Source of the DNA: a virus
Lineage: Duplodnaviria > Heunggongvirae > Uroviricota > Caudoviricetes
Direction: 5' to 3' (one strand)
IMG/VR virus record: IMGVR_UViG_2711768000_000008
DNA: 4,624 nt
Positions 1-4,624 of this stretch are shown in pieces (within the stretch, counting starts at the first letter, position 1; every line of letters begins with the position of its first letter). The notes under the pieces are model-generated. The model was not told the origin of the DNA. It saw only the letters and a list, made by a program, of their open reading frames with translations, and ran no database searches. Made by a program: the position numbers and the translations under genes.

Positions 1-151
1 CTCTTTAGAGTAACGTTGGGTTTTTCTGCTCATTATTAGCTCCTTCTGATGCCATTCTATTTCAGGAAGGAGTGTCCGTTAAACTCAGGCTACCTCAGGT
101 TATTCGCTTCTGGGCATGGGCGGATCAACAAATGATAGACGGTAATGCAGA

Positions 152-174
152 TTGTAACGCTCGCGGCGTTACAA
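152..174. repeat. Palindrome TTGTAACGC-n5-GCGTTACAA (iteron-like)
   Basis: Perfect 9-bp inverted arms at 152-160 and 166-174, read directly. The core 7-mer recurs at 363-369, 375-381 and 398-404. Confidence 0.5.
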
Positions 175-362
175 AAAGTGCAATAGATCGCATCACTTTT
201 ATGTCTGGTTTTGCTGATGCGTTAATTCAGGTTGGATGGCTGGTCGAAAATGACGGAGGGCTTTCTCTACCTAACTTTGAACGTCATAACGGAAAAAGCT
301 CTAAAAAAAACGGGCGGTTACAAACGAGCGAGTAACAAAAATACGCGAACTGAAACGAAAAG

Positions 363-405
363 GTAACGCTGCCAGCGTTACACAAACGGATCAAAAAGCG
401 TTACC
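363..405. repeat. Palindrome GTAACGCTG-c-CAGCGTTAC plus an extra GCGTTACC half-site (iteron-like)
   Basis: Perfect 19-bp palindrome at 363-381, with a further GCGTTACC at 398-405. It sits in an A-rich, purine-rich stretch of the initiator gene. Confidence 0.5.
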
Positions 406-780
406 AGAGGAAGAGGAAGAGGAAGATCTAAATACTGATCTCCCCCTCGCCAAAAACGAGCGTCTAAAAAATTCGAGCCGGAGGCTATTGAGCTGCCCGA
501 TTGGTTGCCGGAAACACTCTGGCATGAGTGGGTCCGGTTCAGACAGGCATTGCGAAAACCGATTCGAACGGAGCAGGGCGCTAACGGGGCGATACGGGAA
601 CTGGAAAAATTCCGTCAGCAGGGTTTTACACCTGAGCAGGTGATTCGACACAGCATCGCCAATGAATACCAGGGCCTGTTCGCGCCGAAAGGTGTTCGGC
701 CTGAGACGTTGCTCCGACAGGTTAACACCGTCTCGTTGCCGGACAGTGCGATCCCGCCAGGCTTCAGGGGGTAACGGACC

Positions 781-1618: not shown

Positions 1619-2041
1619 ATGGCGAAACCTTTTACTCCCGAACAGCGGGAAGAACTGAAGACGCGAATTGTGGAACTCGTGCATCAGGACGGTCGGGTCA
1701 CGATTCGGCAGTTGTCAGATGAAACAGGTATCAGTCGTGCGTCTGTCGGTCGCTTATGCATAGAACTGGTCGCAAGTGGTGATGTATATAATTCTGGCTA
1801 CGGCTTATTCCCGTCTGAACAGGCTCGCAAGGACTGGCAAAGCGCCCGCAAAAAACTCTCGAGAGTAAAGGTGAGGAAACCGGTTGTTGTTGATCCGGAC
1901 CTTATCTGGTCATTACCTGACGGAGAAATACGCCGCTACGACAGGCGCCTGAATATAATCTGTCGCGAGTGCCGGAAGAGCGAAGCTATGCAGCGTGTAC
2001 TGGCTTTCTATCAGGGTAATTTTCAGGAGGCGATACTGTGA
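1619..2041 (+). CDS. Small HTH-like protein, tentatively Ren family (Rex-exclusion negation); family assignment unverified
   Basis: AGGAGG at 1609-1614, 4 nt before ATG 1619; 140 aa. The segment VTIRQLSDETGISRASVGRLCIEL looks like a helix-turn-helix. The C-terminal CRECRKSEAMQRVLAFY resembles my recollection of the lambda Ren C-terminus, and the position right after the P/DnaC-like gene matches lambda gene order. Confidence 0.6.
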   Translation: MAKPFTPEQREELKTRIVELVHQDGRVTIRQLSDETGISRASVGRLCIELVASGDVYNSGYGLFPSEQARKDWQSARKKLSRVKVRKPVVVDPDLIWSLPDGEIRRYDRRLNIICRECRKSEAMQRVLAFYQGNFQEAIL

Positions 2042-2098
2042 ATGAAATTAGCTATCAGGCTTCAATTACCGCTGGCATTCGCATCAAAGGAGAGGAGC

Positions 2099-2455
2099 AT
2101 GGAAATAAAACCAGAAGATGAGTTAAGCAATATCGTTTTATTTCCGGTAAAAGAGGATGACCCTCGTAATCAGGTTAATTTTCTTTATGAGCCATCGGAA
2201 AGACCATATTGCCATCACGCCTCTGTACGGGTTGACGAAAAAGAGCGTCAGGTCCGCTGTAAAATCTGCGGTGCGGTTGTGGAGCCGTTTGACTGGATGC
2301 TCTCTGTGGCAAAAAGAGAAACCAGACTGGCAGATGATGTAAGGCTATTGCGCCAGGAGGAACAGGAAAGGCGGAGAAATATAGAAAAGCTGATACAGAT
2401 TGAGCGTAACGCGAAAGCGCGGATACGCAGGGCGACAAAATCCAGAACTGAATAA
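2099..2455 (+). CDS. Hypothetical Cys/His zinc-ribbon protein with a charged coiled-coil-like C-terminus
   Basis: AGGAG at 2088-2092, 6 nt before ATG 2099. Contains C-H-H ... C-x2-C (CHHASVRVDEKERQVRCKIC) and then an Arg/Glu-rich helical tail. An in-frame ATG at 2042, immediately after the upstream TGA stop, is an alternative start (AGGAGG sits 12 nt upstream of it). Confidence 0.55.
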   Translation: MEIKPEDELSNIVLFPVKEDDPRNQVNFLYEPSERPYCHHASVRVDEKERQVRCKICGAVVEPFDWMLSVAKRETRLADDVRLLRQEEQERRRNIEKLIQIERNAKARIRRATKSRTE

Positions 2456-2602: not shown

Positions 2603-3289
2603 ATGACCCCAATAAACATATTTATGACAGTTGCTGATTTCAAACGGCCCAAATTGGAGCTCCCAAACGGGGCAAACAAACTACTACTGCACTCTTGCTG
2701 TGCTCCATGTTCCGGTGAGGTGATGGAGGCGCTTCAGGCCTCGGGAATCGACTACACCATCTTTTTCTACAACCCGAACATTCATCCTCAGAAAGAGTAT
2801 TTAATTCGTAAGGATGAGAATATTCGCTTTGCTGAACAACACGGCGTGCCGTTTATTGATGCTGATTACGACACAGACAACTGGTTTGAACGAGCCAAAG
2901 GAATGGAATGGGAGCCCGAACGAGGGATCCGTTGCACCATGTGTTTTGACATGCGTTTTGAGCGGACAGCGCTGTACGCCGCTGAAAATGGTTTCAGTGT
3001 GATCAGCAGTTCACTGGGCATTTCACGCTGGAAAAATATGCAGCAGGTTAACGACTGTGGGCGGCGAGCCGTCGCGCATTATCCGGGCATGGTGTACTGG
3101 GATTATAACTGGCGCAAGCAGGGCGGCTCGTCCCGTATGATTGAAATCAGCAAGCGCGAAAAATTCTATCAGCAGGAATATTGTGGCTGTGTGTATTCTC
3201 TGCGCGATACCAATCTACACCGCAAATCTCAGGGACGCCCTCTTATCAAAATTGGTCAACTCCACTACGGTAAAGAAGAGAAGGAGTGA
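2603..3289 (+). CDS. DUF208/QueH-family protein (putative B12-independent epoxyqueuosine reductase)
   Basis: 228-aa ORF with the N-terminal signature [14 protein letters not shown], which I recognise as the QueH/DUF208 hallmark, plus further Cys pairs (CTMC, CGC). No clear SD at ATG 2603; ATG 2624 is an alternative start. Stop TGA 3287-3289. Confidence 0.72.
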
Positions 3290-3340: not shown

Positions 3341-3438
3341 GACTGCGGGTGCTTGAGGCTATCTGCTTCAGGCATGAACACCAAAAGGCAGATAGAGAAA
3401 AGCCCCAGTTAACATTACGCGTCCGGCAAGACGCTTAA

Positions 3439-3688
3439 NNNNNNNNNNNNNNNNNNNNNNNNNNNNNNNNNNNNNNNNNNNNNNNNNNNNNNNNNNNNNN
3501 NNNNNNNNNNNNNNNNNNNNNNNNNNNNNNNNNNNNNNNNNNNNNNNNNNNNNNNNNNNNNNNNNNNNNNNNNNNNNNNNNNNNNNNNNNNNNNNNNNNN
3601 NNNNNNNNNNNNNNNNNNNNNNNNNNNNNNNNNNNNNNNNNNNNNNNNNNNNNNNNNNNNNNNNNNNNNNNNNNNNNNNNNNNNNNNN
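3439..3688. other. Run of 250 N (undetermined or masked sequence)
   Basis: Literal n characters, flanked by a candidate promoter upstream and a strong terminator downstream. Confidence 1.
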
Positions 3689-3710
3689 CATCCTCAACGC
3701 ACCCGCACTT

Positions 3711-3767
3711 AACCCGCCCATCGCTGTGATCTCTCAGCGTTTCGGCGGGTTTTTTGTTGTTTATTTC
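3711..3767 (+). terminator. Rho-independent terminator
   Basis: Outer stem CCCGCC (3713-3718) pairs with GGCGGG (3744-3749); inner stem CGCTG (3722-3726) pairs with CAGCG (3735-3739). Followed by TTTTTTGTTGTTTATTT. An in-frame TAA at 3710-3712 sits just before the stem. Confidence 0.7.
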
Positions 3768-3884: not shown

Positions 3885-4172
3885 ATGAAAATCGAAGAAT
3901 TGCGTGAAATTTTTAGTGAAAATGGCCTCTATGCTGTGCGCGTTGAGAATGGAGCGATTGTCAGCCATTGCCGCATTAGATGTTTGCAATCTCAACAAAG
4001 GAAGAGCGGTGCTGTGTTATTTTATTTTTGTAATGGACTTCTGACGGACGGTTTTATTTTGCGTGAGGACGAATTTGTCACATCATTACGGGTTTTGAAA
4101 GAGATTGGTTTTAAGGCTGGTTTTCTGCTTTTGCTGAAGAATAAACTCATCTACAATCTTGAGCAGGATTGA
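3885..4172 (+). CDS. Hypothetical 95-aa protein, AT-rich, no family recognised
   Basis: ATG 3885 is the first start in an ORF that opens at 3816; GAAGG at 3871-3875. Visibly AT-richer than the neighbouring genes. Stop TGA 4170-4172. Confidence 0.55.
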   Translation: MKIEELREIFSENGLYAVRVENGAIVSHCRIRCLQSQQRKSGAVLFYFCNGLLTDGFILREDEFVTSLRVLKEIGFKAGFLLLLKNKLIYNLEQD

Positions 4173-4210
4173 ACTCCTGCTGTGTAACACCGTGCCACCG
4201 GAGAAAGCCG

Positions 4211-4564
4211 ATGGCACATATACAACTGGTCAAACAAACCTCTTCCGGATTACTTCTCCCGGCGACGCCGGAGAGTTGCGATTTTCTGCATCAAATCAAA
4301 ATAGGTGAGTGGATACACGCAGACTTTAAGCGTGTGTGTAACTACGCATTCCACAAGCGTTTTTTCAAACTCCTGCAACTGGGTTTCGATTACTGGACTC
4401 CGGTCGGTGGGGCGATCACGCCTCGCGAACGAAAACTGGTGTCCGGTTTCGTTGATTACCTGTGTGAATCAGTAGGCCGGGAACATACGCCAGCTCTGAG
4501 CGAAGCCGCAGAGCAATTGAGGTGTACTGGCAATAGCGGACACTACCATTTGTTCTTTTTTTAA
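4211..4564 (+). CDS. Hypothetical 117-aa protein, no family recognised
   Basis: GGAG at 4200-4203, 7 nt before ATG 4211. The ORF track starts it at TTG 4169, which has no SD. Ends in a T7 run (FFF then TAA 4562-4564). Confidence 0.55.
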   Translation: MAHIQLVKQTSSGLLLPATPESCDFLHQIKIGEWIHADFKRVCNYAFHKRFFKLLQLGFDYWTPVGGAITPRERKLVSGFVDYLCESVGREHTPALSEAAEQLRCTGNSGHYHLFFF

Positions 4565-4624
4565 GCAGCCATCTGATGATATTTTTCCCTGAAGGCTGCC
4601 GGGGAGATATTCCCCAGACGAGAG

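Follow-up and report, generated by a model that had tools for sequence, protein, structure and literature searches.

In bacteriophage lambda, ren is co-translated with O and P, and its mutation impairs growth on Rex+ lysogens. Ren binds RexA and RexB in two-hybrid assays, and suppressors of the ren phenotype map to O and P. A ren gene is present in every initiator–helicase-loader module, and Ren is treated as a probable component of the replication module. This published work on lambda suggests a replication-linked role for Ren at least as much as one in anti-exclusion. Among other early phage proteins, Ea22 has been described as carrying interchangeable C-terminal domains.

The DNA we analyzed is a stretch of 4,624 nt from a Caudoviricetes virus (IMG/VR record IMGVR_UViG_2711768000_000008), referred to here as the window, which appears to represent the early-right (PR-type) operon of an E. 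coli or Shigella lambdoid prophage that is in decay. The genes, protein features, ribosome-binding sites and spacer described below all lie on the plus strand. In order, the window encodes an O-like initiator, a DnaC/YdaV-like helicase loader, two open reading frames that are the subject of this analysis (ORF1 and ORF2), QueH, hok/sok and a NinB-like/DUF1367 protein whose gene is interrupted by IS600. The helicase-loader gene (781–1604) was identified by its match to NCBIfam PRK12377 (E = 4e-85 over its unmasked portion); it is N-masked at 1212–1602, and its end was inferred from a near-identical genome (L003). In L003, an annotated ydaV lies directly 5' of the DUF977 gene that corresponds to ORF1, giving the order O-like gene, ydaV, DUF977. 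ORF1 and ORF2 are both real, and both are ordinary, already catalogued prophage genes.

ORF1 (1619–2041) specifies a protein of 140 aa, begins with ATG, ends with TGA at 2039–2041 and is preceded by a Shine-Dalgarno sequence that can be read directly from the DNA (AGGAGG, 1609–1614, 4 nt 5' of the ATG). The protein matches the entire Pfam model for DUF977 (PF06163; positions 1–134 of 134, E = 1.1e-33) with a score of 116.5 bits, above the gathering threshold of 22.1 bits. The initial annotation had described the product as a Ren-like HTH protein, and several lines of evidence uphold that assignment. The profile of PHROG 142 ("Ren-like exclusion protein") matches ORF1 over residues 1–139 (E = 2.7e-44) and lambda Ren (NP_040633, 96 aa) over residues 1–95 (E = 1.6e-41), in both cases full length. 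An hhalign comparison of the DUF977 profile with lambda Ren gave a probability of 93.3% over 89 columns with 25% identity, spanning both the winged helix-turn-helix (wHTH) and the C-terminal motif. Finally, genes of the ORF1 type lie directly 3' of replication genes, as ren does, and were seen behind four different replication modules. The relationship is remote, as lambda Ren falls short of a match to Pfam DUF977. By sequence comparison, then, ORF1 is a member of DUF977 and truly homologous to lambda Ren over its full length.

The two proteins share an N-terminal wHTH and a C-terminal helix with the motif ECRxSxAMxRVLAxY, which is near-invariant across DUF977 proteins. In ORF1 this C-terminal Ren signature (NIICRECRKSEAMQRVLAFYQ; aa 112–132, 1952–2014) aligned by BLASTP with residues 73–92 of lambda Ren at 60% identity (E = 3e-7). 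The wHTH is predicted to span aa 7–84 (1637–1870) on the basis of an AlphaFold2 model (pLDDT 85–93), Foldseek comparisons and matches to HTH_24 and HTH_IclR; the structures retrieved with the model by Foldseek were generic winged helices only, of the IclR, GntR, MarR and MntR types. At least three alleles of the DUF977 HTH exist, of which ORF1 carries one, and the region of the recognition helix (about aa 27–50) is polymorphic between them. The wHTH allele is linked to the neighboring replication module among loci that are not independent of one another, and this linkage is weak evidence that would fit the replication view of Ren.

ORF1 and lambda ren occupy the same place, each being the third gene of the replication module of a PR operon (O-like gene, ydaV and ORF1 in the window; O, P and ren in lambda), but the surroundings and architecture of the two genes differ. 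The loader encoded before ORF1 is DnaC-type, whereas ren follows a loader of the lambda-P type. ORF1 has its own Shine-Dalgarno sequence and is separated from ydaV by a 14-nt gap (measured in L003, since the end of the upstream gene is N-masked in the window), whereas lambda ren overlaps the upstream gene and is translationally coupled to it. ORF1 also contains an insertion of ~30–40 residues between the wHTH and the C-terminal motif that lambda Ren, which lies outside DUF977, lacks. Relative to the DUF977 proteins of enterobacterial prophages, also annotated as LygF in phage and E. coli records, ORF1 shows no substantive difference: it is a typical member, 99% identical to Shigella and E. coli entries, of a family that has no assigned function.

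By homology, ORF1 would most likely contact the replication machinery of the phage and act in this way early in lytic growth. Like its lambda counterpart, it could also weaken the Rex-type exclusion imposed by a resident prophage, given that the lambda ren phenotype is suppressed in O and P and that Ren binds both Rex proteins. Resistance to RexAB and interaction with the Rex proteins are known for the lambda protein only, and a role for ORF1 in anti-exclusion or counter-defense would be extrapolated from one lambda phenotype. Searches of ORF1 against PADLOC defense-system models gave no match at E ≤ 1e-3, the best of several weak matches confined to the HTH region having an E of 0.0017. The lyg name derives from the Sdf region of Salmonella Enteritidis. 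We rejected LygF as a functional name, as the literature retrieved with it concerns either lysozyme genes of the goose type or announcements of Salmonella genomes, and gives no function. We also rejected K-12 YdaW as a functional proxy for ORF1: ydaW appears in a preprint's list of retron-Sen2 toxin blockers, but its product is a member of another family, PHROG 630 (BLASTP E = 0.054 to ORF1), and the retron result is therefore not transferable.

With regard to the second gene, an open reading frame ending at 2455 had been called from 2042, directly after ORF1 at 1619–2041. Both reading frames are present as described, but the second gene starts at ATG 2099 (2099–2455, 118 aa) and not at ATG 2042 (137 aa). 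A strong Shine-Dalgarno sequence (AAGGAGAGGAG, 2087–2097) lies just 5' of ATG 2099, and RefSeq calls the protein (WP_001343130.1) from this codon, which is also where the PHROG profile starts, along with every homologue from other genera. Moreover, relatives have GTG or GTA at position 2042, and where ORF2 occurs in other genomic contexts conservation starts only ~27 nt 5' of 2099. Comparison of junctions delimits the intervening 57 nt (2042–2098) as a spacer in the ORF1 frame that contains no stop codon and holds the ORF2 Shine-Dalgarno sequence. An 11-bp hairpin at the ORF2 start was considered as a conserved element of translational control and discarded, as divergent homologues lack the structure (z from -0.25 to +1.2).

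The ORF2 product had been described as an unassigned zinc-ribbon/coiled-coil protein, and this is correct: searches of Pfam, NCBIfam, PADLOC, PDB and BFVD placed it in no family, and its sole match was to PHROG 1621 (function unknown; E = 5.1e-56, residues 20–136 of the long open reading frame, model positions 1–120 of 134). The Cys/His pattern (C-x-H...C-x2-C, 2204–2290) is evident from conserved alignment columns, with predicted strands at residues 43–46 and 51–54 and a sub-threshold match to Zn_Ribbon_TF. The putative zinc ligands are C38 (2210–2212), H40 (2216–2218), C54 (2258–2260) and C57 (2267–2269). All of 118 diverse homologues keep C38, C54 and C57, while 94% of them keep H40 and the other 6% have C in its place, which bears out the pattern noted in the initial annotation. 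A G-x3-DPFD motif directly follows the ribbon. In the AlphaFold2 model, two beta hairpins precede a single helix of 55 residues (aa 63–117, 2285–2449; pLDDT 84–94 over aa 71–110). ORF2 is thus predicted to have a generic zinc-ribbon fold, with two knuckles on beta hairpins supplying four conserved predicted metal ligands.

The long helix is closed by a basic motif (IEKLIQIERNAKARIRR) that corresponds to the near-invariant ERNxKARIRR of the family; within the helix L98, E102, N104, K106 and R108 are 81–91% conserved. Conserved hydrophobic residues recur along it at 3/4 spacing (84, 88, 91, 95, 98, 105, 109 and 112), a heptad pattern, and the Pfam coiled-coil matches obtained with the family are weak and generic only. 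Toward the N-terminus, an acidic segment that is predicted to be disordered (pLDDT about 55) contains a short motif, ELSNIVLFP (2120–2146), recognized from alignments, for which the family consensus is [DE]x[NK][VI][IV]x[FL]P (NV[VI]xFP for short). Two residues of this motif, F15 and P16, are 41% and 30% conserved family-wide.

Comparison of ORF2 with PHROG 1621 yields a family name only: like the related PHROGs 8538 and 4865 it has no assigned function, and none of its members has a known structure or Pfam model. ORF2 has the CHCC ribbon and the ERNxKAR helix in common with about 1,600 clusters. The family comprises 1,636 cluster representatives at 50% identity (E ≤ 1e-3). Pfam returned no zinc-ribbon match above threshold. 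The best, weak matches were to ribbons of the TFIIB and S27e types (PF08271 and PF01667), which have the two-knuckle geometry and ligand spacing in common with ORF2; PF08271 scored 21.1–21.5 bits against a gathering cut-off of 29 bits, and only 16 of the 118 family members gave any match to it. In these ribbons the first knuckle is C-x2-C, whereas that of ORF2 is C-x-H, and the 55-residue helix has no counterpart in TFIIB. Foldseek searches of PDB and BFVD with the ORF2 model gave nothing below an E of 0.2, the best being a TFIIB ribbon at that value, which is not significant. The family profile retrieved coiled-coil noise only from PDB sequences, PADLOC models gave no match to ORF2 at E ≤ 1e-3, and no ORF2 paralogue was found in the examined parts of lambda, K-12 Rac and related loci.

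The genomic distribution of ORF2 argues against the functional pairing with ORF1 that the initial annotation had implied. In 79 IMG/VR loci the gene before ORF2 encodes a DUF977 protein in 42 and something else in 37. Prophages of Klebsiella, Salmonella and Serratia carry an ORF2 homologue between YbcO/RusA/NinG and YlcG and the antiterminator Q, with no adjacent DUF977 gene, and lytic phages likewise have homologues without DUF977. In Stx2a-type phages, the ORF2 sequence directly follows the N-terminal coiled-coil module of an Ead/Ea22-like protein (PF13935) or forms the C-terminal part of such a protein; ORF2 of the window lacks the Ea22 N-terminal module. The C-terminal domain of lambda Ea22 was considered as a relative of ORF2 and is unrelated (hhalign probability 0.05%). 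In the one Salmonella prophage inspected from the DUF977 side, that gene is followed by an unrelated one. The location of ORF2 is always in an early region. ORF1 and ORF2 are therefore not a conserved pair; ORF2, which occurs independently of DUF977, is a cassette that has its own ribosome-binding site and travels separately. It would recombine into different places in lambdoid genomes, and the two genes would adjoin in the window through mosaic recombination and not as a dedicated two-gene system. We favor, with a probability of roughly 55%, an account in which ORF1 is a Ren homologue belonging to the replication module, ORF2 is a separate mobile accessory gene, and an inverted repeat that follows ORF2 has no demonstrable role.

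Two other accounts tie the genes more closely together. ORF1 and ORF2 might form an anti-exclusion module, in which the Ren-like protein neutralizes Rex-type abortive infection and ORF2 acts as its partner or as a second anti-defense factor. Homology to a protein whose loss in lambda impairs growth on Rex+ lysogens, adjacency across an invariable in-frame spacer of 57 nt in 42 of the 79 E. coli-type loci, and the existence of fusion variants speak for such a module, but we consider it improbable, as homologues of ORF2 are found apart from DUF977 in lytic phages, behind Ea22 modules and in the nin region of prophages from three other genera, and the inspected Salmonella DUF977 gene adjoins an unrelated gene. 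Nor did either protein match a PADLOC defense model at the cut-off used, no rex genes were seen in the near-identical prophage, and the retron-blocker finding for ydaW concerns a different family. Alternatively, read-through of the in-frame UGA might produce some DUF977–zinc-ribbon fusion besides the two separate proteins. In each of the 42 DUF977-ORF2 junctions a single TGA precedes 19 stop-free spacer codons that keep the reading frame, and in four database clusters, which encode fusions of 278 aa, the stop is replaced by a codon for W, R or G. However, because these junctions are near-identical their conservation carries no independent weight, and an in-frame, stop-free arrangement would arise by chance with a probability of about 0.13. 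ORF2 has a strong Shine-Dalgarno sequence of its own and occurs without ORF1, and no element that promotes read-through was identified. Further database fusions of ORF2 (to DUF977, DUF1133, terminase and others) were rejected as evidence of domain fusion, as they are mostly clear rearrangement chimeras; in one, the ORF2 N-terminus is joined to a DUF977 C-terminus. We regard read-through as very unlikely. Some functional coupling of ORF1 and ORF2 may nevertheless exist within the E. coli lineage, because in about half of the loci the genes are neighbors that always share a frame, with one TGA between them, and fusion variants exist.

The inverted repeat after ORF2 raises a comparable question, namely whether it is a terminator or protein-binding site that ends the module. 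The repeat is exactly as first described, AT-only with 9-bp arms (ATTAAATTT at 2455–2463 and AAATTTAAT at 2475–2483) and an 11-nt loop. Dinucleotide shuffling of the 147-nt intergenic region produced a repeat of this kind in only about 1.1% of cases, and the repeat sits inside a block that is co-inherited with ORF2. Against a function, it is perfect in 32 of 80 close relatives and broken in the other 48, is absent from the RNA minimum-free-energy fold of a segment whose folding is not unusual (z = -0.9), and, having an AT-only stem with no G-C pairs and no T-run, was not called as an intrinsic terminator; an Rfam and tRNA scan of 2456–2602 likewise found nothing. Its reading as a meaningful signal is not supported, and we judge the repeat to be incidental and not a terminator; that it is nonetheless functional strikes us as a very slim prospect. 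As for ORF2 itself, its product might be a host-takeover factor whose N-terminal NV[VI]xFP peptide docks on a conserved host protein while the coiled coil dimerizes. Candidate targets would include a component of replication or repair, or a protease. In keeping with this proposal, the motif is retained from enterobacterial to high-GC members while the surrounding sequence is not, the segment that contains it is predicted to be disordered, the gene is always early, and in Ea22-like proteins, whose presumed targets are host processes, ORF2 can take the place of the variable C-terminal "cargo" domain. The motif, however, matches no testable known docking consensus, and the family-wide conservation of F15 and P16 is limited (41% and 30%). 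We hold this proposal to be tentative and rather unlikely. A broader version appears unlikely as well: that ORF2 represents a large, unrecognized family of phage early proteins, defined by the CHCC ribbon, the N-terminal peptide and an invariant ERNxKARxRR helix, which would serve host takeover or anti-defense in a new way through a universally conserved host machine or nucleic acid, and that in the E. coli lineage it may work with the Ren-like protein, possibly by way of a low-level UGA read-through fusion.

Under the account we favor, with ORF1 in the replication module and ORF2 as a mobile accessory gene, the ORF2 product would carry a CHCC zinc ribbon, a conserved N-terminal peptide and a strongly basic, near-invariant C-terminal helix face (E-R-N-x-K-A-R-I-R-R), and would most likely form a coiled-coil dimer. 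Judging from its composition, zinc ribbon and pattern of conservation, it would most likely bind nucleic acid, or else a highly conserved host machine, and so modulate an early transaction between phage and host. Sequence composition alone further suggests that the family spans several phyla.

These findings leave the current understanding of phage defense and counter-defense unchanged. ORF1 can be annotated as a Ren homologue (DUF977), with the caveat that the mechanism of Ren may concern replication as much as exclusion, and ORF2 is best annotated from ATG 2099, as an independent cassette. Very widespread among phages, the ORF2 family lacks a Pfam model, a structure and a phenotype, and is a reasonable and cheap target for a first functional study, for which conservation singles out the invariant basic helix face and the short N-terminal peptide.

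The window covers part of a lambdoid prophage's early-right operon. Nucleotides 1603-2620 share 99.7% identity with the chromosomes of E. coli FDAARGOS_943 and 944, and the nearest protein entries belong to Shigella and E. coli. A near-identical annotated prophage (L003) carries, in order, genes for a Cro/CI-type repressor, a YdaT-like protein, a 262-aa hypothetical protein, YdaV (DnaC-like), DUF977, a hypothetical protein, QueH, HokD, a further hypothetical protein, DUF1367, DUF1364 and DUF1133, and then tRNA and lysis genes. This order is matched by the window's own ORFs, which comprise pieces of an O-like replication initiator (72-774), a DnaC-like gene (from 781, partly N-masked), the DUF977 gene (ORF1, 1619-2041), a second gene ending at 2455 (ORF2), queH (2603-3289) and a NinB-like/DUF1367 gene (4169-4564). 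ORF1 and ORF2 are both present where the initial annotation had placed them.

Several other features of the locus were recorded. The O-like initiator (window 63-774) is broken across three reading frames, with changes near an A8 run (about 303-310) and near about 470; in a related genome, the alignment to which covers 1603-2620 only, RefSeq has an unbroken 262-aa protein here. Inverted repeats within the O-like region (TTGTAACGC/GCGTTACAA at 152-174 and GGTAACGCT/AGCGTTACC at 362-405), together with a third GCGTTAC at 375, look like origin iterons, and the whole window has six perfect inverted-repeat hits of at least 9 bp (four distinct) versus 0.47 expected. Directly downstream of ORF2 lies queH, a prophage-borne epoxyqueuosine reductase gene (Pfam E 1.9e-65); the homology block common to most relatives stops at about 2499-2541, placing queH in a different mosaic module. 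At 3347-3406 the sok antitoxin RNA is matched in part, with 53.9 bits just short of the gathering score (59). In the related genome hokD occupies the place of the N-masked stretch 3439-3688, and further on, at about 3706-3756, a G+C-rich hairpin with a T-run was read by eye. The right end of the window (about 4503-4624) matches an end of IS600 (IS3 family), which cuts the DUF1367/NinB-like gene to 131 aa (199 aa for the complete copy in the related genome), consistent with a decaying Shigella or E. coli prophage.

The description of ORF1 as a Ren-like HTH protein is borne out by a PHROG shared with lambda Ren, a profile alignment, a predicted winged helix and a position behind replication genes. 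ORF1, which has a canonical AGGAGG Shine-Dalgarno sequence four bases ahead of its ATG, is covered end to end by Pfam DUF977 (116.5 bits, E 1.1e-33), and it also has a match to PHROG 142, 'Ren-like exclusion protein' (E 2.7e-44). Lambda Ren, taken from NC_001416 for direct comparison, matches PHROG 142 over its whole length (E 1.6e-41). BLASTP aligned ORF1 with lambda Ren over the C-terminal 20 residues only (NIICRECRKSEAMQRVLAFY versus NLVFKECRQSAAMKRVLAVY, E 3e-7), and hhalign of the DUF977 profile against lambda Ren covered the HTH and the C-terminal motif (probability 93.3%, E 2.7e-7, 89 columns). ORF1 differs from lambda Ren by an insertion of about 30-40 residues. Lambda Ren itself falls short of Pfam DUF977, which makes the kinship real but distant; as judged from these comparisons, ORF1 is a genuine Ren homologue. 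AlphaFold2 predicts a winged helix-turn-helix at aa 7-84 with confidence (pLDDT 85-93) and the C-terminal part at lower confidence, and the structural neighbours of the model are generic IclR/GntR/MarR/MntR winged helices. Synteny points the same way: in lambda, ren comes after O and P, and in the window's prophage DUF977 comes after the replication genes; DUF977 is also found behind three other kinds of replication module. Whereas lambda ren overlaps the gene upstream, ORF1 is set off by a 14-nt gap and its own Shine-Dalgarno sequence.

The initial annotation had read this homology as an anti-exclusion function. Heteroimmune ren-minus lambda grows poorly on Rex+ lysogens, and suppressors of the phenotype lie in O and P (Toothman and Herskowitz 1980, as cited in Thomason et al., bioRxiv 10.1101/2021.04.19.439022); in two-hybrid assays Ren contacts RexA and RexB (10.1101/2021.04.19.439022). 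The O, P and ren genes overlap one another and are translated together, according to the supplement of Thomason et al. (10.1101/2021.04.19.439022). The same authors consider ren 'likely involved in DNA replication', and every 'initiator-helicase loader' module is said to have a ren (Weigel and Seitz 2006, as cited in 10.1101/2021.04.19.439022); a separate study found that P-lethality and replicative killing do not need Ren. On this literature, 'counter-defence' describes a single phenotype of one family member and not an established family activity. An anti-exclusion role for ORF1 is plausible by analogy, with a role in replication as the competing reading; extrapolating from lambda genetics, ORF1 would act in early lytic growth via replication proteins, Rex-type proteins or both. 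K-12 YdaW, encoded at the equivalent place in the Rac prophage and reported among retron-Sen2 toxin blockers, was rejected as a proxy since its family is PHROG 630 rather than Ren/DUF977. In the phage records and literature covered, the name 'LygF' had no function attached.

The recognition-helix region of DUF977 (about aa 27-50 of ORF1; window 1700-1770) differs sharply between at least three alleles in E. coli prophages, whereas residues 51-135 are almost invariant, and many megablast matches begin at about window 1760, just past the HTH. In a set of 40 loci that are not independent of one another, the window's allele was found with a YdaV-type upstream gene in 18 of 18 cases, and the other two alleles were enriched, not exclusively, with other upstream modules. 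This linkage fits a domain acting together with the replication module next to it, though it may simply stem from proximity.

The second gene is real and ends at 2455 as annotated, but its start required revision. The mechanical ORF runs from ATG 2042, whereas the true start is at ATG 2099, because AAGGAGAGGAG lies upstream (2087-2097), RefSeq has the 118-aa form, the PHROG profile alignment starts at residue 20 of the long ORF, homologues in Klebsiella, Salmonella, Serratia, Erwinia and Yersinia all start at the equivalent methionine, relatives have GTG or GTA at 2042, and at loci without an upstream DUF977 gene similarity starts only about 27 nt 5' of 2099. An 11-bp perfect inverted repeat (GGAAATAAAAC/GTTTTATTTCC, 2101-2111/2135-2145) forms as RNA a -12.1 kcal/mol hairpin (z = -2.7) with the ORF2 start codon inside; it is kept in close relatives and was not found in divergent ORF2 homologues.

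ORF1 and ORF2 share a frame, with a single TGA and then a spacer of 57 nt free of stop codons between them (window 2039-2101), an arrangement present in 42 of 42 DUF977-ORF2 junctions, and four database protein clusters are 278-aa ORF1-ORF2 fusions with the stop replaced by W, R or G. We did not take this arrangement as evidence for programmed TGA read-through because the junctions are nearly identical and so cannot count as independent samples, an in-frame spacer with no stop has a prior probability of about 0.13, ORF2 is served by a ribosome-binding site of its own, and other 'fusions' in the database are obvious rearrangement chimeras.

By its wider distribution, ORF2 is a cassette of its own and no dedicated partner of the Ren homologue. 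Among 79 usable IMG/VR loci, the gene directly upstream of E. coli-type ORF2 was DUF977 in 42 and something else in 37; in the latter, conservation begins at ...LAFASKERS-ATG, the Shine-Dalgarno region. Klebsiella and Salmonella prophages carry the homologue between YbcO/RusA and YlcG plus the Q antiterminator, and in an inspected Salmonella prophage a DUF977 gene lies several kilobases away, with an unrelated gene directly after it. In Serratia the homologue sits between RusA or NinG and a small ORF followed by a 204-aa ORF. In the early-left region of Stx2a-type phages (e.g. ArgO145), ORF2 comes after an Ead/Ea22-like N-terminal module or is joined to it in a fusion; Ea22 has been described in the literature as consisting of an N-terminal domain, then a coiled coil, and a C-terminal domain that varies between phages, and the lambda Ea22 C-terminal domain, when compared, proved unrelated to ORF2. 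Homologues also occur in phages such as Serratia phage Parlo, Enterobacter phage Tyrion and Cronobacter phage JK004, and among runs of small early-type genes on distant metagenomic contigs. From these varied contexts we conclude that DUF977-ORF2 adjacency is one frequent recombinant arrangement in E. coli and not a conserved operon. Past their lysis genes, two Klebsiella prophages with an ORF2 homologue encode an anti-defence protein of the Acb2/Tad1-hairpin family (Pfam PF24729; L004 10488-10772, L005 10489-10782).

The AT-only 9-bp inverted repeat after the ORF2 stop lies exactly where it had been noted (2455-2463/2475-2483). When the 147-nt intergenic region was shuffled with dinucleotides preserved, about 1.1% of shuffles contained a perfect 9-bp repeat (loop of 3-30 nt), which makes the repeat mildly unusual. 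As a signal it did not hold up: it falls outside the RNA minimum-free-energy structure, its segment folds no better than shuffles (z = -0.9), a terminator scan called no site there, and it is intact in only 32 of 80 closely related loci, the others having disrupting variants such as TAAATAAATTTAGCACTGTAAATAAAATC. Rfam and tRNA scans returned nothing in 2456-2602. We regard the repeat as incidental AT-rich sequence.

The original remark that the zinc-ribbon protein has no obvious family stands for the curated libraries: ORF2 has no above-threshold match in Pfam, NCBIfam or PADLOC, the last two being empty. A TFIIB-type zinc ribbon is the only Pfam match, but falls below threshold (21 bits against a cut-off of 29). 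In PHROGs, ORF2 hits PHROG 1621 at E 5e-56, with weaker hits to 8538 and 4865; each of the three is labelled unknown function. Homologues, annotated as hypothetical throughout, occur in E. coli, Shigella, Salmonella, Klebsiella, Kluyvera, Serratia, Yersinia, Erwinia, Pantoea, Pluralibacter and Morganella, and an ORF2 profile run against 1.84 billion cluster representatives retrieved 1,636 at E <= 1e-3 and 254 at E <= 1e-10, most of them 100-185 residues long. Their composition, from AT-rich through very GC-rich, suggests that the family is present in several phyla. We found no ORF2 paralogues in the examined parts of lambda, Rac and related loci.

Across 118 diverse members, C38, C54 and C57 are 100% conserved, R50 96% and H40 94%, with Cys at position 40 in the other 6%, as would be expected of a metal ligand. 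A G-x3-D-P-F-D motif past the second knuckle, A71, L98 and the motif E102-R-N104-x-K106-A-R108-[IL]-[RK]-R are also conserved. In Enterobacterales the helix LRxEExxRRxNIEKLIQIERNAKARIRR is almost invariant, with the remainder down to about 45% identity, and a short N-terminal motif (ELSNVVxFP in enterics, DDNVVPFP in GC-rich members) is recognisable family-wide inside a variable acidic segment. The AlphaFold2 model (mean pLDDT 76, N-terminus at low confidence) places the predicted metal ligands on two beta hairpins, followed by a single unbroken helix at aa 63-117 (pLDDT 84-94 over 71-110). Conserved hydrophobic residues along it (84, 88, 91, 95, 98, 105, 109 and 112) have the 3/4 spacing that fits a putative coiled coil. 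Foldseek searches of PDB and BFVD gave a TFIIB ribbon as the best match (E 0.2), and the family profile retrieved only coiled-coil noise from PDB sequences.

ORF1 and ORF2 are ordinary prophage genes that are already catalogued. ORF2 combines a ribbon with four conserved ligands, a long helix and an invariant basic motif with an early-region location and independent mobility. We tentatively propose that it would dimerise through the long helix and that, with similarly low confidence, the ribbon and the basic helix face would bind either nucleic acid or some highly conserved component of the host; a second docking site or a stability determinant are possible roles for the N-terminal peptide. 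The one point of some interest to emerge from the locus is the function of the large ORF2 family, which lacks a Pfam model.
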